Source: Candidatus Poribacteria bacterium
Lineage (GTDB): Bacteria; Poribacteria; WGA-4E; WGA-3G
Reading direction: 5' to 3'
NCBI GenBank assembly: GCA_965197475.1
Contig: CBDANF010000003.1
Coordinates: 2,496,001-2,560,000, forward strand
DNA length: 64,000 nt
A program made the translations under genes and the position numbers. Shown piece after piece: positions 53,827 through 63,842 of the stretch. Within the stretch, counting starts at the first letter, position 1; every line of letters begins with the position of its first letter. The notes under the pieces are model-generated. The model worked only from the letters and a program-made list of their open reading frames with translations, was not told the DNA's origin and did no database searches.

Positions 53827-55620
53827 TTATAGAATTCTGTAGTAGTCCCTTATCTTCGTAGCCATGAGTTTTCTACGTTCTTCCAAAAACTTTGGGTAGT
53901 TCTCAAAAGTTACTGTTTCCATACCAAGGGGAATACAGTGTTCATCATAGTTGGTTTGCAACTCTTCGGAATCATCTATTCTTCCGTAAGTGGATTCACC
54001 GGTTTCACATCCATTGTGCAACGTTGAAAAGTATGTTGCAGGTGGCTTGTTTCCAATTGCAATGTTAATCTCTTGCTGCATCATCACCAAGTTTGCTATC
54101 TGATTGTAATCCTTAGGAGCAAAATTATGACTTTGTAGATAGCTACGTGGAAAAATATGGTGAATGTCTTTTTGTCCTTCAAGCAAGGTCCGGACTGTAA
54201 TGTCCCGAGAAAGAAAACCTTTGTTATTTTCTTTTACTTGACTAGCTAGAAAAACATTAAAATAAGGACTCTTTGTACTTGAAGTTTCCATCTGTTGCGG
54301 TAGTGCCACATTCCAGAAAGTATCTGAGAGATTTGCTTGATCTATGATATTGAGATACTCTTTTGCTCCACGGTTGATGATACTCCGAATATCTTCATCA
54401 AATGCAGTTTCGGTGGTTCCAGTATATCTACTTGTCAATATTGACATCACAAACCATCGCTGTACCAATCCTTCAATTTCCTGGGGGGTTGTCCCATCCG
54501 CACGCAGCATCAAATATAACCCATAAGCGAAATTTACAGTATTCACTGAGTTAATCATTGAACTATCTACAAATCCTGCTGATTCCAATATCATTACGAA
54601 ACGCTTAAAGTCAACTCCGTTAATATAGCGAATAAGTCCATCTTCAAGCCGAGAAAAAGAATTCTCAGCAATTTCATCCTCAAAGGTTCGTGTTTCAAAA
54701 TTTCGACCAGATAGTAACGCGACCAAGTCCCTTAAGCGTCCACGCTTGAACCCTATCATAAAAATTACTCGAAGCAGATCGGTATAAGAAGGTCTGTAGA
54801 GATCATTTCTCCAATTCTCAAGCCATTTCATTTTCGTGAAATATTTGGTATGAACGAAATCTGAGTTGGCAGCTAACTTACTGTATGCCCCTGGTGAGGA
54901 TACCAAATAACAAAAATAGTCAATACACTTGCGATGTAGGTGCCCACCATACTTTTCTGCAGAGGCAATCTTGGACATTGCAAAGTCTGATGCATTCAGT
55001 GTAACTCCTTTAGAATTAATACGAACAAATATATCTGTCACCGTTTCTACATCCAATTCCGATTGCAATTCAACAACCCCAAGGCTATTACCCCGGATTT
55101 TTTGCAGGCGATCAATACAATTGAAAACTTCGTCTCTATCTATCCCATCATTATCCTTACAGTACTCCTCTAAGTAGTGAAGAATTTTAAAGTTTGAATC
55201 AAACAGAACTGAAATATCAGAAATCCATCCTTCATCCTTTTTGATAACAGGGTTGGATACTTCAAAACGTTCCTCAATTGGATAAAATGCAATAACAATT
55301 CGCTCTTGCTTGTAATTTTTTTTTCACAACCTTTTCCCTAGTAATGCTGCCTCAAGGGAAATAACGCGCTGCTGACCGTCAATCAAGATTCGCTGACCAA
55401 TTGATTGTGTTCCATCTTTGAGGCGAACATCCGGAGCTTTCCACGTTATAAGATATCCAACAGGATATCCCCGGTACAGAGAATCAATAAAATCGCGCAC
55501 CTTTGTAGCCTGCCAAACAAAAGGTCTTTGGATTTCAGGTATTGCAATTTCTTTGGTCTGAATCCAATTTAACAAGTTTCCTACAGAGTAATCGTTTACA
55601 GAATATTGCTGATCTGGCAT
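53827..55620 (-). pseudogene. GmrSD-like (DUF262 plus C-terminal HNH/DUF1524) type IV restriction nuclease with an in-frame TGA at 55324-55326
   Basis: [26 protein letters not shown] and DIHHIFP...IANL motifs; both ORFs and the gap between them are in one frame. Confidence 0.85.
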
Positions 55621-55735
55621 CTTCTTCCTCACTTATAGTTTGTATCAAATGACCCCATGAGTTATACTATTAGTATTCGTTAAACTAACGAGTAGATGTC
55701 CTCGGATCCCCGATAATCTATTCATGGAGGTCAAT

Positions 55736-56536
55736 ATGAACCGCAAGAAGGATACCGCTTACGGTATCACTCGGCTCGAATCCAAGAATGCCAGAGCCGC
55801 GATTATTCAGAAGATTTCAGCAGACTTTAATCTAATGCCTCTCGTTGCTGAAGCCTACTATAAACAGATTTCCACCTACTTTGAACAACACGCCGATGTG
55901 CACCTGACATCAGGGCAAATCTGCTACGAGGCAGTCGCCGCAGAGGAACCCGCAGGTAAACATATCGCTTTAGCGAAAAAAGTTTCCTGTCGGCTAACTC
56001 TCAATGACACAAACGCCGATCTTGAAGTCTTAGCGAATTATGGTCTCGCAGGACTCAGACGGCATCGGATCCTCCGATTGACCCAAGAAGCTTATGACCA
56101 AGATGCCTTACTGAGCTACGAGGATTTAGCTGTATTATTAACCACCAGTCCTGCTACAGTCAAACGCGACATTCGACACTTGAAGCAGGATGGGTATTTC
56201 GTTATGACGCGCGGGACGAAACACGACATGGGCCCCGGCACTTCTCATAAAACCCAGGTCCTGGAGTTATATTTCAAAGCCTATACCTTCACCGAAATCG
56301 AGAAAAAGACGAACCACAGCGAACGAGCTGTCTACCGCTACTTGAAAGACTTTACACAAGTCGCTACGCTCCATCATCAAGGCTTTCCTAACGCACAGAT
56401 ACGCCTGATCACCCATCTATCTGACCGGTTGATCCGCGAGTATCTCTCACTCTATGAGGAATACCAACACACAGATCGCATGACCCAACTCCTTCACCCA
56501 GAACCTGAGGACACAAAAAAGGGGGACCTCTCATGA
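55736..56536 (+). CDS. DUF1670-like protein A
   Basis: RLTQEAYDQDALLSYEDLAVLL...TRGTKHDMGPGTSHK...HSERAVYRYLKDF; GGAGG RBS. Confidence 0.8.
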   Translation: MNRKKDTAYGITRLESKNARAAIIQKISADFNLMPLVAEAYYKQISTYFEQHADVHLTSGQICYEAVAAEEPAGKHIALAKKVSCRLTLNDTNADLEVLANYGLAGLRRHRILRLTQEAYDQDALLSYEDLAVLLTTSPATVKRDIRHLKQDGYFVMTRGTKHDMGPGTSHKTQVLELYFKAYTFTEIEKKTNHSERAVYRYLKDFTQVATLHHQGFPNAQIRLITHLSDRLIREYLSLYEEYQHTDRMTQLLHPEPEDTKKGDLS

Positions 56537-57417
56537 GCAAACCTCTAACCCGCACGCAAATCAACGAGAAGAAATTCAGACGCATCAACGATAAGTCCCT
56601 ACGACAGTTGCTCATTCACCGCTTTCTCAATGACTATGGTTATGACAAAGGCGAAGTCACTGCCACCGCCATTGTTGATGATATTCTTAAGACCGTTGAA
56701 GACTATTTCGTGATTACCCTTCCTTTGGAGAAACTCGCCACCGGCGATCAACTCCCGGATGAGCGTTTCTTGAGTTATGGACAACTCGTTTGGATGGCCG
56801 TCCCTATTGAAGAGCATCCAGAAAGAGGAAAGTCCATCGTCAAAACCCGCATGAAACCCGTCATCCTGACTTACCTCGCCGCAGAGGATATTGAATCCTT
56901 TCGCAACGGTTTCACCTCCCGGCAATTGCGGATCAATCGCTTGGTCCGCTGGTGTCATCAAGCTTATGACCAAGGGGCATTATTGACACAACTCGACTTG
57001 GCAGTTTTGCTCAATGTCTGCGATGCCGTTGTCTGTGATTATGTTAATGAATGGCAAAAAACCACTGGAGAACTCTTGCCCACCCGTGGCAATATCCATG
57101 ACTTATCGGGGGCTATTACCCATAAGAAAGAGATCATAACCCTCTATCTTCAAGGACATCTCACCCCCAGGATTGCCGCAAAGACCAAACACTCTAAGGA
57201 GGCAGTTGACCGATACATTCGCGATTATGAGAGCGTCAAAGTCGTTCGGAAAGCAACCGCAGATATTGATAAAATCTCACAGATTACACGACTTTCTAAA
57301 CGCGTCATCTCTCAATATCTCGACCTCATACCGCAGCACCAACTCCAAGCCATAGATGCAGACCTTGCCAATTCAGACTCAAACGATGAAGCCACTCACC
57401 AAGGAGAAGCCCAATGA
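56533..57417 (+). CDS. DUF1670-like protein B (paralog, ATGA-coupled)
   Basis: RWCHQAYDQGALLTQLDLAVLL...PTRGNIHDLSGAITHK...HSKEAVDRYIRDY. Confidence 0.8.
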   Translation: MSKPLTRTQINEKKFRRINDKSLRQLLIHRFLNDYGYDKGEVTATAIVDDILKTVEDYFVITLPLEKLATGDQLPDERFLSYGQLVWMAVPIEEHPERGKSIVKTRMKPVILTYLAAEDIESFRNGFTSRQLRINRLVRWCHQAYDQGALLTQLDLAVLLNVCDAVVCDYVNEWQKTTGELLPTRGNIHDLSGAITHKKEIITLYLQGHLTPRIAAKTKHSKEAVDRYIRDYESVKVVRKATADIDKISQITRLSKRVISQYLDLIPQHQLQAIDADLANSDSNDEATHQGEAQ

Positions 57418-57484
57418 GACCCTAATCCTATGTTCCCGACGAACTTTACTTCGCAAAACCGGGGCAGGTGCCTTGAAAATATGG

Positions 57485-57513
57485 TTGACAACCGCTACTG
57501 GTTTTGCTATACT
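57485..57513 (+). promoter_or_regulatory. Near-consensus sigma70 promoter inside the element, pointing at its right end
   Basis: TTGACA-N17-TATACT. Confidence 0.75.
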
Positions 57514-57644
57514 TTAGACACGTTTATCGCTAAACGCATCATTTCTCAAAGAGGATGCTCGCGATCCCAACGCAACCCACTCATCAACGATCGCTGGGAA
57601 GCCAATAAACATCAGCCTTCCAGCTATCCTATGGTCATTTGATA

Positions 57645-60600
57645 CTATTTCAGAATAAGCATTTTCCGTAAAAGGGATTTATTATCTGCTTGCAGTTGAT
57701 AGAAATAGATACCACTCCCGACACGTTCGCCAACAGCATTGGTGCCATCCCAATGTGCAGCACGACTCCGACTTGTATAGTAGCCTGCCCGCTGATGTCC
57801 GAGTTCTAAACGGCGGACGGCGACACCCCGCGCGTCGTAGATAGTAATCTGCACGTCGCTCGCTTTTGCTAAGTGATACGGTATCCACGTCTCTGGGTTG
57901 AATGGATTGGGATAGCTGGAGAGCAGGACTGTGGTAGTGGGAAGTGTTTGACTTGCCGGTGCTGCGTTGCCATCCTCTGCAGGAATCTCAATATCTATGG
58001 TTAGACCCGGATTGTTCGCCTGCATCCTGCGGAGCGGTGCGTAATCTGAAATAGAATTCCCACTGAGCCTTAACGTTGTCAGCGCAGTCAACTCTTCGAG
58101 TGTTGATATATCGCTGATGTCGTTACGGGACAGATCGAGTTTTATCAGTGAAGTCAACTCTTCAAGTGCCGATATATCCCTGATGCCGTTACCGTAAAGA
58201 TCGATCGTTTCCAGTGCTGTCAACTCTTCAAGTGGCGATATATCACTGATGCGGTTAGAGGACATATAGAGCCGTGTCAACGCAGTCAACTCTTCAAGTG
58301 CCGATATATCGCTGATGCGGTTAGAGGGCAGACCGAGCGTTGTCAGCGCAGTCAACTCTTCAAGTGCCGATATATCGCTAATGCTGTTAGAGGACAGAAT
58401 CAACTGTGTGAGATTGGTCAACTCTTCAAGTGCCGATATATCGCTGATACGGTTAGAGGACAGAGAAAGCGTTTCCAGTGAAGTCAACTCTTCAAGTGCC
58501 GATATATCGCTAATGCTGTTATTTCTCAAAGAGAGCTGTGTCAGCGCAGTCAACTCTTCAAGTGCCGATATATCGCTAATGCTGTTAACGGACAAAGAGA
58601 GCGTTGTCAACGCAGTCAACTCTTCAAGTGCCGATATATCGCTAATGCTGTTAACGGATAGATCGAGGTATGTCAGATTGGTCAATTCTTCAAGTGTTGA
58701 TATATCGCTGATACGGTTAGAGGACAGATTGAGCGTTGTCAGTGCTGTCAACTCTTCAAGTGCCGATATATCACTAATGCTGTTAGAGGACAGATTGAGC
58801 GTTGTCAGTGCTGTCAGGTCTTCAAGTGCCGATATATCGCTGATGCTATTATTGTTTAGAACGAGCGTTGTCAACGCAGTCAACTCTTCAAGTGCCGATA
58901 TATCGCTGATGCGGTTAACGGACAGCCAGAGCGTTGTCAGTGCGGTGAGTCCATCAAAATCACCGTCTTGCAGTGTTGTGATTTGTCTATATCCAAGATC
59001 AAGCGCAGTAATCGCGGCAAGATGTGCCGCTGTCACATCATCCGCGGAGTTAATCCCTGGCACTGCTCGGACAATAGCATCGCGTACCTGTTGCGTGCGG
59101 TCACTGACCGGGGTCACATTCTCGTTTACATCTTTGACGTTAATAGTGACGGTGGTAGTTGCGCTCCTCTTTTTCCCATCGGAGACAGTGATCTTCACCG
59201 TATAGGTTTTCTTCGTTTCATAATCCAGGGATGCTTTCGTTTTCAGTTGTCCGGTTGTTCTGTCAAGGCTAAACGAGTCCGCATCTGTGCCACTGGACGC
59301 GTATGTCAAGGTATCGCTGGTATCCGCATCTGTAGCATCGACTGGCGTGCCGATGTTTGTGTCCGCCGCCGTGTTTTCATCTATGGCGCGGGTTGTGCTT
59401 TCGCCATCCGTGAACACGGGTGCACTGTTTGTTACTTGCGGTGCCCTGCGGGTAGCAGTAACCGTCACGTCAACGCTCGCACTCCCCCCGTTGCCATCAG
59501 TAGCAGTGACGATGACTGAATAGTCAGATCGCGTATCGCTAATGAAAGCGGCAGTGGTTTGCAGCTGCCCTGTTGTGCTATCAATGTCAAACGATGCAGC
59601 GTCTGTGCCACCGAGCGTGTATGTCAAGGTGTCGTTGTCCGCATCTGTCGCAGACACAGGATCCCCGATATTTGTACCGGCGGTATCCCCATCTATTTCT
59701 ATGCTCCGGATGATATTACTTAGTAAGAACACGGGGGCACGATTCGGTGCAGCCACAGAAACAGAGATACTCTGTGTCGCTGTTAGCTTACCATCGCTCG
59801 CTGTCACGGTGACTGTCGTATTCCCTGCTCCTTCTGGCGTGATCGTCACAAGGGAGCCAGATACACTTGCGGTTGCTACACTAATATCATCCGAACTGGC
59901 GGTATAAGTGAGCGTGTCATCATCAGGATCCGAAAAGTTGCCAGATACATCCACACGCACAACTGAACCACCCGCTATCAACGTATAAGAAGAAATTGAA
60001 CCGACTGCCACAGGCGCACGATTCGGCGCAGCCACAGAAACAGAAATGCTTTGTGTTGCTGTTAACTTACCATCGCTTGCTGTCACGGTGATTGTTGCGT
60101 CCCCTGTTCCCTCTGGTGTGATCGTCACTAAAGAACCAGATACGCTTACGGTTGCCACACTGGTATCATCCAAGCTGGCGGTGTAGGTGAGCGTGTCATC
60201 ATCGGGATCCGAAAAGTTGCCGGCTACATCTATCTGCACGGAAGAATCCCCTGCTGTTAAGGTATCAGCTGAAATCGTGCCAACTGCCACTGGTGCACGA
60301 TTCGGCGCAGCCACAGAAACAGAAATGCTTTGTGTTGCTGTCAACTCACCATCACTCGCTGTTACCGTGATTGTAGCGTCTCCTGTTCCTTCTGGTGTAA
60401 TCGTCACTAACGCACTGGACACGCTCACGGTTGCTACACTGGTGTCATCTGAACTCGCGGTATAGGTGAGCGTGTTATCATCGGGATCCGAAAAGTTGCC
60501 GGCTACATCCACGCGCACAAGTGAACCACCCGCCACCAACGAATAAGACGAAATTGTGGCGATTGGCACAGGCGCACGATTCGCCGCAGCCACAGAAACA

Positions 60601-63600
60601 GAGGTGCTTTGTGTTGCTGTCAACTCTCCATCGCTCGCTGTTACCGTGATTGTTGCGTTCCCTGCTCCCTCTGGCGTGATCGTCACTAAAGAACCGGATA
60701 CACTCACGGTTGCCACACTCGTATCATCCGAGATCGCACCATAACTGAGGTTATCATTGTCAGGGTCTTCAAAGTTGCCAGATACATCTACGCGCACAAC
60801 TGAGCCACCTGCCACCAACGAATAAGATGAAATCGTGCCGACTGCCACTGGCGCACGATTCGCCGCAGCCACAGAAACCGAGATACTCTGTGTCGCAGTC
60901 AACTCGCCATCGCTTGCTGTCACGGTGATTGTTGCGTCTCCTGCTCCCTCTGGCGTGATCGTCACTAAGGCACCAGACACGCTCACGGTTGCCACACTCG
61001 TATCATCCGAGATCGCACCATAACTGAGGCTATCATTGTCAGGGTCTTCAAAGTTGCCGGACACATCCACGCGCACAACAGAACCACCCGCCATCAACGT
61101 ATAAGATGAAATCGTGCCAACTACCACAGGCGCACGATTCGCCGCAACCACCGAAACCGAGATACTCTGCGTTGCCGTCAACTCGCCATCACTCGCTATC
61201 ACTGTCACGCTTGCATTCCCCACACCCACCGGTGTGATTGTTACTAAGGTATCAGCCATACTCACGGTTGCGATATCGGTATCACTGGAGCTCACTGTAT
61301 AGGTGAGTGTGTCATCATCAGGATCTCGGAAATTGCTGGATACATCTATTTGTTCTGAAGAACCTTCAGATACCAGTGTACGGGACGAAATCGTACCAAT
61401 TGCCACAGGCGCACGATTCGCCGCAACCACCGAAACCGAGATACTCTGCGTTGCCGTCAACTTGCCATCGCTCGCTACAACGGTGATTGTCACACTTCCT
61501 GCCGCTACCGGGGTGATAGTGACTTGGGAACCAGACAGACTCGCTGCCGCAACATTCGTGTTATTCGAACTTACACTATAGCTGAGGTCGTCATCGTCTG
61601 GATCCTCAAAGCTGCCGGATACATCCACAACTACCGAATCCCCTGCTGTTGTTAGTGTTTGAGCGGAAATCGCTCCCACGGTGACGGGCGCACGATTGGC
61701 AACAGGCGCAGCGGTGACAGTGACGGAGATTGTCTGTGTTGCTGTCAACTTGCCATCGCTTGCCGTCACCGTCACGACAGCATTCCCTGCTCCCACTGGT
61801 GTCAGCGTAACTAAAGCATCAGCCACGCTCACTGTCGCTATATCTGTGTTTTCCGAACTTGCACTATAACTGAGGTCATCATTGTCAGGGTCTTGGAAGT
61901 TGGCAGACACATCTACAACGACCAATGAATCCCCCACCGTCAGCGTCCGATCAGAAATCGCCCCCACGGCGACAGGCGCACGATTCGGTGCAACCACTGA
62001 AACCGAGATAGTCTGCGTTGCTGTCAACTTGCCATCGCTCGCCATCACCGTCACGACAGCATTCCCTGCTCCCACTGGTGTCAGCGTAACTAAGGAATTA
62101 GACACACTCACAGATACAATACCCGTGTTATCCGAACTCGCACTATAACTGAGGTCATCATTGTCAGGGTCTTGGAAGTTGGCAGACACATCCACGCGCA
62201 CAGACACACCACCCGCTGTCAGCGTGCGAGGGGAAATCGCCCCAACGGCGACAGGCGCACGATTTGGCACAACCACTGAAACAGAGATAGTCTGCGTTGC
62301 TGTTAACACGCCGTCACTTGCTGTTACCGTCACAACAGCACTCCCCGCACTATACGGCGTAAGTGTTACTTGGGAACCGGATATACTCACTGTCACAATA
62401 TCTGTGTTATCCGAACTCACACTATAACTGAGGTCATCATTGTCAGGGTCTTGGAAGTTGCCGGACACATCTACAATCACGGATGCACCTGCCGCTGTGA
62501 GCGTCCGGGTAGAAATCGCACCTACTGTGACAGGTGCGCGATTAGCAACAGGTACAGCGGTGACAGTGACAGAGATTGTCTGTGTTGCTGTCAATACGCT
62601 ATCGCTCGCTGTCACCGTCACAATAGCACTGCCAGCACTGTGCGGGGTGATTGTGACCTCGGCACCAGTCACACTTACTGCTGCAACACTTGTGTCATCT
62701 GAACTCACACTATAACTAAGATTATCAGCGTCCGGATCCGAAAAGCTGGCGGATACATCCACAACCACGGATGCACCTGCCGCTGTTAGCGTGCGGCCGG
62801 AAATCGTCCCTACGGTGACGGGTGTCCGATTCGGCACAACTTGTGGTGGTTCGTCTATTTCAACATCAACATAATACATATTCGGAAGACTTGCAAGTGG
62901 GGAAGTGTCGGTAATCGGATTCCCCGTAAGTCGTAGCAATAGAAGTTTTTTTAGATTTATCAAAACGCTGATATCGCGGATTTGATTATGAGAAAGCCCT
63001 AAGACCTGCAGGTGTATCAATTTTGTAAGCGGCTTGATGTCGGTAATGAGATTGTTATCAATAAGTAGCAAAGCAAGTTTTGTCAAGTTTTCAAGCGGCT
63101 TGAGATTACGAATCTGATTTTTATGTAGCATTAATGTACGCAAATTTGTCGCATGTTCCAGTCCGGTGAGGTTAGTTATTCCAAGCGCAATTGCACTTAG
63201 TCTCGTTAGGCTTTGCATGGCATGTGGCGTGATGCGCACATTTACTCCTAAACCTAACGCTTCACGTACTACTGCTCGTAAATTCGCATCGGTGATAACA
63301 CTCGGTATCTCAATATCAACATCACTCAACTTCGGGAGGTTCACAAGTAGGGTCGTATCTGTAATCGGATTACCCGCGAGGCGTAGCCATTGAAGTTCTA
63401 CCAAGTTTTCCAAGGCACTTACATCGCTGATTTGATTTTGCGGAAGTCCTAAGAATTTTAGGTTGATCAACTGTTCAAGTGGACTGATGTCCGTAATTGG
63501 ATTGTTAGTAATATAGAGAAGCGTAAGATTTGTTAACTTTTCAAGGGGTTTAATATTCTGTATCTGATTTTCCCAAATTACTAACGATATGAGTTGTGTA

Positions 63601-63842
63601 GCGTGTTCTAAACCTGTGAGGTTCGTTATTTCTTGTTTTGGGACATAAAGACCTGTTAAGTTCAGCATCTGCTGTTGCGTAAGTGGTTCATCTGCGTCAA
63701 GCTTGAGTGCAGTTCGGACTACGGTTCTAAGATTCGCATCTGGCATCCAAGTAGATGCATCCTGAGCATTTGCAATGTTAATGGAACTAATCAGTGCGAA
63801 AATAATAATGACCGATAGTTTTGTAATATATTTTTTAAACAT
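57645..63842 (-). CDS. Giant secreted protein: two N-terminal internalin-like LRR blocks, ~11 Ig-like repeats, 2 cadherin-like repeats, ~14 LRRs and a C-terminal FlgD-Ig/sorting-like domain
   Basis: Signal peptide; WMPDANLR caps; NRAPV...FxDPDxDxLxY repeats of ~93 aa; 22-aa ISDISALEELT repeats; YPNPFNPETWIPY...GIYFYQL. Confidence 0.92.
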   Translation of the reverse strand: MFKKYITKLSVIIIFALISSINIANAQDASTWMPDANLRTVVRTALKLDADEPLTQQQMLNLTGLYVPKQEITNLTGLEHATQLISLVIWENQIQNIKPLEKLTNLTLLYITNNPITDISPLEQLINLKFLGLPQNQISDVSALENLVELQWLRLAGNPITDTTLLVNLPKLSDVDIEIPSVITDANLRAVVREALGLGVNVRITPHAMQSLTRLSAIALGITNLTGLEHATNLRTLMLHKNQIRNLKPLENLTKLALLLIDNNLITDIKPLTKLIHLQVLGLSHNQIRDISVLINLKKLLLLRLTGNPITDTSPLASLPNMYYVDVEIDEPPQVVPNRTPVTVGTISGRTLTAAGASVVVDVSASFSDPDADNLSYSVSSDDTSVAAVSVTGAEVTITPHSAGSAIVTVTASDSVLTATQTISVTVTAVPVANRAPVTVGAISTRTLTAAGASVIVDVSGNFQDPDNDDLSYSVSSDNTDIVTVSISGSQVTLTPYSAGSAVVTVTASDGVLTATQTISVSVVVPNRAPVAVGAISPRTLTAGGVSVRVDVSANFQDPDNDDLSYSASSDNTGIVSVSVSNSLVTLTPVGAGNAVVTVMASDGKLTATQTISVSVVAPNRAPVAVGAISDRTLTVGDSLVVVDVSANFQDPDNDDLSYSASSENTDIATVSVADALVTLTPVGAGNAVVTVTASDGKLTATQTISVTVTAAPVANRAPVTVGAISAQTLTTAGDSVVVDVSGSFEDPDDDDLSYSVSSNNTNVAAASLSGSQVTITPVAAGSVTITVVASDGKLTATQSISVSVVAANRAPVAIGTISSRTLVSEGSSEQIDVSSNFRDPDDDTLTYTVSSSDTDIATVSMADTLVTITPVGVGNASVTVIASDGELTATQSISVSVVAANRAPVVVGTISSYTLMAGGSVVRVDVSGNFEDPDNDSLSYGAISDDTSVATVSVSGALVTITPEGAGDATITVTASDGELTATQSISVSVAAANRAPVAVGTISSYSLVAGGSVVRVDVSGNFEDPDNDNLSYGAISDDTSVATVSVSGSLVTITPEGAGNATITVTASDGELTATQSTSVSVAAANRAPVPIATISSYSLVAGGSLVRVDVAGNFSDPDDNTLTYTASSDDTSVATVSVSSALVTITPEGTGDATITVTASDGELTATQSISVSVAAPNRAPVAVGTISADTLTAGDSSVQIDVAGNFSDPDDDTLTYTASLDDTSVATVSVSGSLVTITPEGTGDATITVTASDGKLTATQSISVSVAAPNRAPVAVGSISSYTLIAGGSVVRVDVSGNFSDPDDDTLTYTASSDDISVATASVSGSLVTITPEGAGNTTVTVTASDGKLTATQSISVSVAAPNRAPVFLLSNIIRSIEIDGDTAGTNIGDPVSATDADNDTLTYTLGGTDAASFDIDSTTGQLQTTAAFISDTRSDYSVIVTATDGNGGSASVDVTVTATRRAPQVTNSAPVFTDGESTTRAIDENTAADTNIGTPVDATDADTSDTLTYASSGTDADSFSLDRTTGQLKTKASLDYETKKTYTVKITVSDGKKRSATTTVTINVKDVNENVTPVSDRTQQVRDAIVRAVPGINSADDVTAAHLAAITALDLGYRQITTLQDGDFDGLTALTTLWLSVNRISDISALEELTALTTLVLNNNSISDISALEDLTALTTLNLSSNSISDISALEELTALTTLNLSSNRISDISTLEELTNLTYLDLSVNSISDISALEELTALTTLSLSVNSISDISALEELTALTQLSLRNNSISDISALEELTSLETLSLSSNRISDISALEELTNLTQLILSSNSISDISALEELTALTTLGLPSNRISDISALEELTALTRLYMSSNRISDISPLEELTALETIDLYGNGIRDISALEELTSLIKLDLSRNDISDISTLEELTALTTLRLSGNSISDYAPLRRMQANNPGLTIDIEIPAEDGNAAPASQTLPTTTVLLSSYPNPFNPETWIPYHLAKASDVQITIYDARGVAVRRLELGHQRAGYYTSRSRAAHWDGTNAVGERVGSGIYFYQLQADNKSLLRKMLILK

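Follow-up and report, generated by a model that had tools for sequence, protein, structure and literature searches.

A site-specific mobile element of Poribacteria that carries only two DUF1670 genes and lies in the last codon of type IX secretion cargo genes

To our knowledge, all well-characterised prokaryotic insertion sequences (ISs) use one of the DDE, DEDD, HUH, serine or tyrosine catalytic classes. In IS3 and IS1, OrfA and OrfAB are produced through a -1 frameshift at A AAA AAG/C, and promoters form at the circle junction. Here, we describe a mobile element of about 2.0 kb from a sponge-symbiotic Candidatus Poribacteria bacterium that has just two genes, both coding for proteins of family DUF1670 (PF07900). 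It lies in a 64,000-nt stretch of DNA (hereafter, the window; GenBank assembly GCA_965197475.1, contig CBDANF010000003.1) that corresponds to positions 2496001-2560000 of contig C3 of the 5.7-Mb host genome, designated G000. The element is best read as an autonomous member of a previously undescribed site-specific IS family.

Several described systems resemble the element in part. Like IS3 and IS1, it has two overlapping open reading frames (ORFs), the first coding for a small helix-turn-helix (HTH) protein, with A_AAA_AAG ahead of the overlap, as well as terminal inverted repeats, a short flanking repeat and an outward promoter that would act on the genes only when the ends are joined. Unlike theirs, its second ORF codes for another DUF1670 HTH protein rather than a DDE/RNase-H-fold domain, and it uses a single defined site where IS3 and IS1 choose targets loosely. 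With the IS630/Tc1-mariner group it shares a 2-bp flanking duplication and a bipartite DNA-binding region of the HTH_23/28/29 type, but it lacks DDE_3, its repeat is AA within a long specific site and not TA, and it persists in a genome (G035) without any DDE_3 match. An orientation-specific defined site, a 2-bp shared core, REP-like (repetitive extragenic palindromic) hairpins as alternative targets and a presumed circular intermediate recall IS110/IS1111 and the serine recombinases of IS607; the element differs from these by its clear inverted repeats, and neither a DEDD or Resolvase domain nor a conserved structured RNA was found in it. It differs from the HUH elements (IS200/IS605, IS91) in having no match to an HUH hidden Markov model (HMM) and in having inverted repeats and a 2-bp flanking repeat. 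Homing to a harmless, conserved position is known from Tn7, whose TnsD reads the 3' end of glmS at attTn7, and is reported for the IS1202 group next to dif/pdif sites. In contrast to both, the element enters the last sense codon and rebuilds it, it targets a domain-coding sequence present in many copies (45 strong sites in G000), and it has no TnsABC or DDE machinery. Finally, tandem HTH units are also found in the CRISPR repeat-binding protein Cbp1, to which the matches were not significant (NCBIfam HTH_Cbp1, E 0.064; PDB 2lvs, Foldseek E 0.18) and which is not part of a mobile element.

Ends, copies and mobility

An earlier note on the window, made from the letters and their ORFs, had placed the element at 55642..57645 on the basis of perfect 13-bp inverted repeats. 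These repeats (GTATCAAATGACC) were confirmed at 55642-55654 and 57633-57645, two matches against 0.10 expected from shuffles. The borders shared by the genome copies, however, lie 7 nt further out on the left and 3 nt further out on the right, and define an element of 2014 bp on the plus strand (55635..57648, ATAG...CTAT), or 2016 bp with one TT. The ends form a 16-nt imperfect inverted repeat, and a 4-nt insert brings the left one to 20 nt (16/20). The left terminal repeat (55635..55654) reads ATAG-TTTG-TATCAAATGACC and the right one (57633..57648) GGTCATTTGATA-CTAT; the bounding repeats can be written ATAG(TTTG)TATCAAATGACC / GGTCATTTGATACTAT, and the flank, AA in the orientation of the target gene, is duplicated. 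The left TT flank (55633..55634, plus strand) is one copy of the 2-bp direct repeat and corresponds to the AA of the target lysine codon, and the right TT flank (57649..57650, plus strand) to the first two bases (AA) of the terminal lysine codon of the target gene.

We examined 80 related loci and located both ends in 69 of them. Together with 20 local copies, and minus two with flanks too short, these gave 87 insertions with readable flanks. A TT/TT direct repeat flanked 84 of the 87, the window copy included, for which the earlier note had seen no target-site duplication. The left terminal repeat is kept in the 18 full-length G000 copies and a 1772-bp derivative (two copies have single-base variants), and is also conserved across phyla. 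Directly left of the 13-bp repeat, TTATAGTTT is constant in the same 19 units, while TTCATAGTTT stands there in a 432-bp derivative; on the right, TAT follows the 13-bp repeat in 20/20 genome copies. Of 25 genome occurrences of AAACTATAA[AG]T, 19 adjoin an element copy and none of the other six follows the end of a gene coding for a C-terminal sorting domain (CTD), so this string belongs to the element. Contigs of public DNA runs stop at 55635, which is the left border, and many database homologs sit on metagenome contigs of 2010-2020 bp that match the 2016-bp unit, as is typical of collapsed repeats.

The search for further copies bounded by the repeat, which the earlier note had proposed, returned 20 units in G000, of which 18 measure about 2.0 kb and two are shorter (1772 and 432 bp). 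All perfect or one-mismatch repeat matches in the genome pair at ≤2.0 kb, except for one lone one-mismatch match. Over the 2016-bp unit, three other copies are identical to that in the window, two differ by one base and the rest by 4-152. Of the 18 full-length copies, 14 have kept the two ORFs undamaged, three have a damaged first ORF, and one carries a natural fusion of the two (564 aa). The 432-bp copy resembles a miniature inverted-repeat transposable element (MITE) in that the first ~295 nt of the element are joined to its last ~150 nt, and a similar deletion joint was found in two public DNA runs. Presence among relatives is patchy, with a DUF1670 match in 11 of 41 relatives of the host. 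A tblastn search of a plasmid collection with the second protein gave no match. The element is a real, recently active mobile unit. In its inverted repeats, short flanking repeat, MITE-like derivatives and possibly a joined-end intermediate, it follows the pattern of a classical IS.

Two pairs of copies in G000 have half-shared flanks. In one (C2:1160548 and C3:845190), one flank is identical and the distal flank differs; in the other (C2:1472043 and C3:49950), one flank is identical and the proximal flank differs. These pairs suggest recombination between copies, segmental duplication or assembly joins.

Insertion into the last codon of sorting-domain genes

The right end of the element abuts, as the earlier note had recognised, the stop of a giant gene on the minus strand (57645..63842). 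This target gene codes for a 2065-aa surface protein with leucine-rich repeats and Big_9 and cadherin-like domains, ends in ...LLRKMLILK and takes its last codon and stop partly from the element. Its last 90 residues are a type A sorting domain of T9SS, the type IX secretion system (TIGR04183, 33.8 bits against a cut-off of 23; PF18962, 30.3 against 27), and FlgD_ig matches the same residues. The insertion point lies between bases 2 and 3 of the final lysine codon. Read on the minus strand, the right repeat supplies the A of this codon and a TAG stop. As the element end (A-TAG) thereby restores lysine codon and stop, the host protein is unchanged.

The original end of the gene, G TGA (third base of the lysine codon and old stop), has been displaced to the far side of the element (55629..55632, minus strand), where it is followed by GGAAGAAG and the ATG (55620-55618) of a GmrSD gene. 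The junction before insertion thus read ...ATT CTG AA / G TGA GGAAGAAG ATG, with the old TGA overlapping the Shine-Dalgarno sequence of GmrSD, and not ...CTGAAA-TAA-AACTATAAGTGAGG... as formerly reconstructed. In gene orientation, the general pattern is ...CTG AA / ATAG TATCAAATGACC ... GGTCATTTGATAC AAAC TAT / AA / [G/A] T[AA/AG/GA] ..., where spaced slashes mark the borders. One-orientation insertion into the last codon of genes with a T9SS sorting domain is the main feature that the earlier note missed. All 20 G000 copies have a single orientation relative to the ORF abutting the right end, and in 18 of them this ORF ends in ...[RK][KR]M.I.K; an example of a CTD gene end reads ...ACGCGGAAGATGTTGATTCTGAAGTAA....

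An HMM of the sorting-domain tail, built from the occupied gene ends, identified 55 ORF ends in G000. Among the 45 with E ≤1e-19, 17 are occupied, so the element can fill more than one-third of the strongest ends of T9SS sorting-domain genes in G000 without loss of the protein. Unoccupied CTD gene ends have AAG or AAA followed by TAA, TAG or TGA, and no feature that distinguishes them was seen. By eye, the right end of the element (CATTTGATAC) has a 7-nt match, offset by 1 nt, to the ATG-TTG-ATA-C part of some targets; occupied and unoccupied CTD sites of this genome showed no difference at that part.

The same arrangement recurs across the 87 insertions. The relic of an [A/G] plus stop directly follows the distal AA in 76 of them, in several phyla (a 4-mer would do so by chance in ~2%), and a sorting-domain-like C-terminal peptide precedes 74. 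Eight insertions have neither peptide nor stop relic. Five of these eight (L090-L092, L098 and L100, from G035, G026 and one other assembly) sit in the loop of the palindrome AAACCGAGTTTT-GAAGAA-AAAACTCGGTTT. Such REP-like hairpins (AAACCGAGTTTT-loop-AAAACTCGGTTT), of which there are 70 in G035 and 34 in G026, are the alternative target of one subclade. The commonest empty hairpin form in G035 is the X-AA-Y of the occupied ones, that is, a paralogous empty site, which implies clean insertion with a 2-bp direct repeat. The search for empty sites was therefore successful at paralogous hairpins, while no orthologous empty allele turned up. The 2-bp repeat may be either a duplication or a crossover core, since both fit the static sequence.

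Some of the hairpins stand in regular arrays with a spacing of ~159 or ~193 nt (in G035, for example, at C1:3456489-3457155 and C1:1894819-1897594; also in G026). The 432-bp derivative (G000 C3:94120-94551) is the sole local copy to break both the TT-flank and the [A/G]-plus-stop rules: TC replaces TT before its ATAG, and AGTC replaces [A/G] plus stop after it. At a larger scale, insertion makes the ends of T9SS cargo genes in Poribacteria, Ignavibacteria, KSB1 and Gemmatimonadota metagenome-assembled genomes (MAGs) repeat hot spots, and hence places of assembly breaks and rearrangements.

Two DUF1670 proteins and no third gene

The first gene, ORF1 (55736..56536, plus strand), codes for DUF1670 paralog A of 266 aa and starts with an ATG after GGAGG; an upstream in-frame ATG at 55724 would yield 270 aa, and most homologs have 264-266 aa. 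ORF2 (56533..57417, plus strand) codes for paralog B of 294 aa, and its start overlaps the stop of ORF1 (ATGA). Both match PF07900 over nearly the full length of the family (ORF1, E 4e-62, 209.9 bits; ORF2, E 1.2e-61, 208.3 bits; gathering score, 25 bits), which bears out the two coupled DUF1670-like paralogs described earlier. Besides DUF1670, Pfam matches were limited to HTH families (HTH_11, HTH_23/28/29 and sigma-70 region 4), and the best NCBIfam match (E 0.002) was to HTH regulators. Between diverged G000 copies, the ratio of nonsynonymous to synonymous substitution rates was 0.09-0.15 for ORF1 and 0.03-0.07 for ORF2, which places both ORFs under strong purifying selection. Divergence among the copies is mosaic, ORF1 or ORF2 having diverged separately.

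AlphaFold2 models of the two proteins (mean confidence, pLDDT, 70 for ORF1 and 77 for ORF2) show an N-terminal domain of helices and a β-hairpin, a winged HTH, a highly conserved disordered linker (P.RG..HD.G...THK) and additional HTH units. In 76 sequences that share 25-40% identity, H197, H220 and Y228 (ORF2 numbering throughout these two sets) are invariant and G83, L112, R139, A144, Q147, L151, P183, G186, D190, G192, K198 and Y262 nearly so. We read HS...VDRYI.DF as a probable recognition-helix pattern of the HTH_23/28 type and THK as the likely beginning of the first helix of that HTH. Other residues are conserved in one paralog type only, namely R13, K17, E71, K75, E129, D130 and S229 in A and D119 in B; these are candidates for the chemistry, no more.

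Both the local copies and their relatives leave the element with these two genes. Records of the 80 related loci are named as MAGs of Poribacteria, Gemmatimonadota, Ignavibacteria/Ignavibacteriales, KSB1, Bacteroidetes, Phycisphaeraceae and Pseudomonadota. Where both ends were located, related elements span 1737-2031 bp, save one of 2559 bp with disrupted ORFs, and there is no room for a third gene in any of the 69, nor in the 20 G000 copies, none of which exceeds ~2.0 kb. The ends stay conserved while the proteins drop to 61-68% identity across phyla.

For more distant relatives, metagenomes were scanned with six seed sequences that are 37-46% identical to one another. Of 70 distant loci (25-50% identity), 62 have at least two DUF1670 ORFs on the same strand, mostly as overlapping tandems, and eight have one. 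At loci whose ends could be identified, inverted repeats built in the same style enclose a unit of 1.66-1.8 kb. These distant subfamilies have repeats of their own with the same kind of core: ATGCGGACATATGCCAGATT in eight loci, ATAGTGCCAAATGACACTAGG in L176, and TCATATGACACC in L134, the last beside ...CTGAAATAG. The earlier note had considered a non-autonomous derivative whose transposase was deleted, and had asked about longer copies with a transposase ORF. The deletion-derivative reading is refuted, since no lineage among G000, the 69 related and the 70 distant loci yielded a third ORF or a longer copy, even at protein identities as low as 25-50%.

A search with ORF2 of 1.84 billion representatives returned 1017 clusters at E ≤0.001. 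DUF1670 comprises ~1000 clusters (50% identity), spread over bacteria and, it appears, archaea; a match was also present in the control genome of Methanosarcina acetivorans. Long homologs are double (~520 aa) or triple (930-950 aa) DUF1670 fusions, whose other Pfam matches are only to HTH families. Triple fusions in a single polypeptide are represented by P0135, P0137, P0143 and P0145 (930-952 aa), and in P0218 (400 aa), DUF1670 is fused to a DnaG-type CHC2 zinc ribbon. A literature search found nothing on DUF1670 or PF07900; ISfinder lay outside that search, so an uncharacterised entry there is possible. The accessible portions of the literature on Poribacteria ISs, new IS families, type IX secretion and ISNCY/Methanosarcina held nothing on the element. 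The element gives DUF1670 a biological context.

Expression signals, proposed machinery and alternatives

The right non-coding tail (57418..57632, plus strand) is nearly invariant among G000 copies. The 82-nt left and 228-nt right non-coding parts show 0-4 differences, though synonymous divergence (dS) of the ORFs reaches 0.18-0.45, which suggests that the ends are under strong constraint, that copies recombine, or both. Across the family, tail length ranges from 31 to 238 nt. The tail holds a predicted outward sigma-70-like promoter (57485..57513, plus strand; TTGACA-17-TATACT with a TG extension; 11/12 consensus matches) ~135 nt from the right end. Of 46 distinct Poribacteria-type tails, 44 have a similar site at a distance of 132-170 nt from the end; upstream of ORF1, no promoter-like site was seen. 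Several IS families have an outward promoter from which the transposase is expressed only once the ends join. Because the outward promoter at the right end is conserved and none precedes ORF1, a joined-end intermediate, circular or tandem, is probably the main source of expression of the genes, as in ISs of the copy-out/paste-in type. Contigs from RNA libraries of two sponge metatranscriptomes cover the element, one of them bridging the right junction (57638-57879), and the left flank has no cover in the same runs; as the contigs show neither strand nor ends, they are a hint of transcription. In the integrated state, the predicted promoter would give antisense RNA over the part of the target that codes for the sorting-domain end (57645-57900), which could affect expression of the cargo gene.

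A second putative signal is the A_AAA_AAG heptamer in the ORF1 frame before the ORF1 stop (56515..56521, plus strand), where a -1 slip would enter ORF2 and give an A-B fusion. Of 51 distinct elements, 30 have such a heptamer with the -1 frame open for at least 200 codons, and these 30 are all of the Poribacteria type; elements of other phyla instead have GGAGG before the ORF2 start. A frameshift fusion is thus possible, not general. A joined A-B protein would be tolerated, given that natural gene fusions exist.

We put the probability at about 0.55 that the DUF1670 pair is the complete transposition machinery, with catalysis by the pair as the step that we infer. The two multi-HTH proteins would act as a heteromer and, in Poribacteria, possibly also as a -1 frameshift fusion. 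They would bind near-palindromic TCAwwTGA boxes present in both ends, recognise the conserved coding sequence immediately upstream of the AA, and perform or steer breakage and joining with a 2-bp stagger. Somewhat more tentatively, and a little short of even odds, the A/B heteromer or fusion could itself be a transposase or site-specific recombinase of an undescribed catalytic class, and DUF1670 a new IS superfamily. If so, the new class would be built from winged-helix/HTH modules plus a small α/β domain and would perform a 2-bp staggered exchange, and the DUF1670 enzyme would read a coding sequence of ~20 bp and so land in the last codon of T9SS cargo genes. The evidence favours the earlier proposal that the DUF1670 proteins perform or target the recombination, and does not separate catalysis from targeting alone.

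Several results weigh against the DUF1670 pair as the complete machinery. Neither ORF has a Pfam or NCBIfam match to a DDE, HUH, tyrosine, serine or DEDD family, as the earlier note had concluded by inspection for the DDE, HUH, tyrosine and serine motifs. A Foldseek search of the PDB with the ORF1 model gave no match at E ≤0.001. With VIA-align, both models matched only winged-HTH or three-helix HTH folds at Z ≤7.1 (≤6.3 for ORF2), an unspecific range, with the N-terminal domains barely covered and model confidence moderate; among the matches of the proposed fold searches there were HTH folds and no RNase-H-like or other catalytic fold. The conserved R/H/D/H/Y residues singled out in the earlier note are indeed conserved. 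However, the superfamily-wide residues H197, H220, Y228, D190, K198, R139 and Q147 sit in the HTH linker and recognition helices, so they are explicable by DNA binding alone and need not be catalytic. No circle or tandem junction was found in contigs of runs X1, X2, X3 and X5 (contigs drop rare forms) or in 176 Poribacteria genomes. An orthologous empty allele was not recovered with the left flank in 40 genomes of the genus, where matches were only 65-72% identical; the regions upstream of these matches are not CTD genes (a weak check).

Further searches gave little beyond HTH similarity. DDE/rve and transpos_IS-type HMMs had no match to either ORF at E ≤1 except the IS1 model, which was the best IS-transposase model (E 0.056, 13.4 bits against a cut-off of 100) and covers only the HTH. 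A profile search of PDB sequences gave one match in the HTH region (8vd6, 'CAP REPEAT', E 2.4e-4), and the best ESM Atlas score (0.80, to small archaeal HTH clusters) was under the useful range. Among the VIA-align matches, the one to the CAP-like domain in topoisomerase VI-A (Z 6.3) scored level with ordinary regulators and was not interpreted. Prediction of the ORF1-ORF2 heterodimer scored 0.13 against a mark of 0.32, which is uninformative in either direction.

The DUF1670 pair could instead be a specificity and architecture module for end binding, target choice and synapsis, with a near-universal host enzyme, such as a Xer-type tyrosine recombinase, a housekeeping nuclease or a topoisomerase, doing the cutting and joining. 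Integrative elements that exploit host recombinases provide a precedent. We regard this as unlikely, though it is the most serious competitor: both proteins are HTH-type DNA-binding modules in which no catalytic fold or motif was detected, the invariant residues map onto HTH elements, and the joined ends, as read from the sequence, would form a palindrome (GATACTAT-TT-ATAG(TTTG)TATC) like a recombinase core site. However, DUF1670 tandems with their own repeats occur in very different hosts, and the Methanosarcina acetivorans genome also matches, so all of these would need to share one conserved host partner. Four of five element-bearing genomes searched lack canonical serine recombinases (Resolvase, PF00239, has no match in the whole of G000, G021, G026 and G035), a 2-bp stagger is not known as a Xer-type product, and no dif-like site is evident. 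Far less probable is mobilisation in trans of a large MITE or deletion derivative by a canonical transposase such as the abundant IS630-type of G000. That genome has ~40 matches to DDE_3 (IS630-type), the flanking repeat of 2 bp is of the length that IS630-type elements make, and the DUF1670 HTHs resemble those of transposases (HTH_23/28/29). Yet G035, without a DDE_3 match, has four elements that score identically; in none of the genomes and metagenome loci examined did a longer master copy share these ends; a passive passenger would not be expected to keep two ORFs under strong purifying selection; and the repeat is AA rather than the TA of IS630. A conserved two-gene regulatory cassette downstream of T9SS cargo genes, not mobile at all, has a negligible probability. 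The proteins do resemble transcription regulators, and some sources call relatives 'biotin operon repressor', but identical 2016-bp copies at unrelated loci with sharp borders and a displaced old stop, unoccupied paralogous sites, MITE-like derivatives, collapsed 2-kb contigs and patchy species presence all contradict it.

A separate question is what reads the target. In tail and 5' untranslated region (UTR), element L095, with a CTD target, is almost the same as L090, with a hairpin target. Between the two, the proteins share 94% and 90% identity, and the substitutions are concentrated in ORF2 residues 113-135 and in the second ORF1 HTH. In the simplest reading, the proteins would recognise the conserved coding DNA (ACNCGNAARATGNTNATN...AA). 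It is improbable, to a degree similar to mobilisation in trans, that recombination is instead guided by a non-coding RNA from the right-tail promoter that pairs with target and donor in the manner of a bridge RNA, with the DUF1670 proteins as its partners. A conserved strong promoter would indeed read through ~130 nt of near-invariant non-coding tail, and site- and orientation-specific insertion with a 2-bp core is as in IS110-type elements. What makes such a guide unlikely is the variable tail (only 31-127 nt in other phyla that keep the same CTD target), the contrast between L095 and L090, whose targets differ while their tails are nearly the same, the lack of any Rfam match to the element and the weak consensus fold of the tail (-5.2 kcal/mol, two compensatory pairs). 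Moreover, no similarity of tail or UTR to target held across subfamilies in local alignments against shuffles; one match reached p ~0.02 among 52 tests, in a UTR segment missing from other CTD-targeting subfamilies.

With the DUF1670 pair as the favoured machinery, the element represents an IS family that is abundant and evidently active, has DUF1670 genes alone and shows no detectable catalytic domain, which implies a new recombinase class or a new way to borrow a host enzyme. It is a natural model for homing to harmless sites and a possible source of compact tools for site-specific integration.

Two observations concern the surroundings of the element. Many of the DDE_3 matches in G000 lie in short frames (135-217 aa) with identical scores, and the DDE_3 matches of this genome point to a second large IS expansion. 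Downstream of the insertion, the GmrSD restriction gene (53827-55620, minus strand) is split into a 98-aa ORF with the start of GmrSD_N and, after a gap of ~255 nt free of ORFs, a 413-aa ORF with the end of GmrSD_N and weak GmrSD_C/HNH matches. GmrSD may have decayed after the insertion cut its link to the upstream gene, whose stop overlapped the GmrSD ribosome-binding site.

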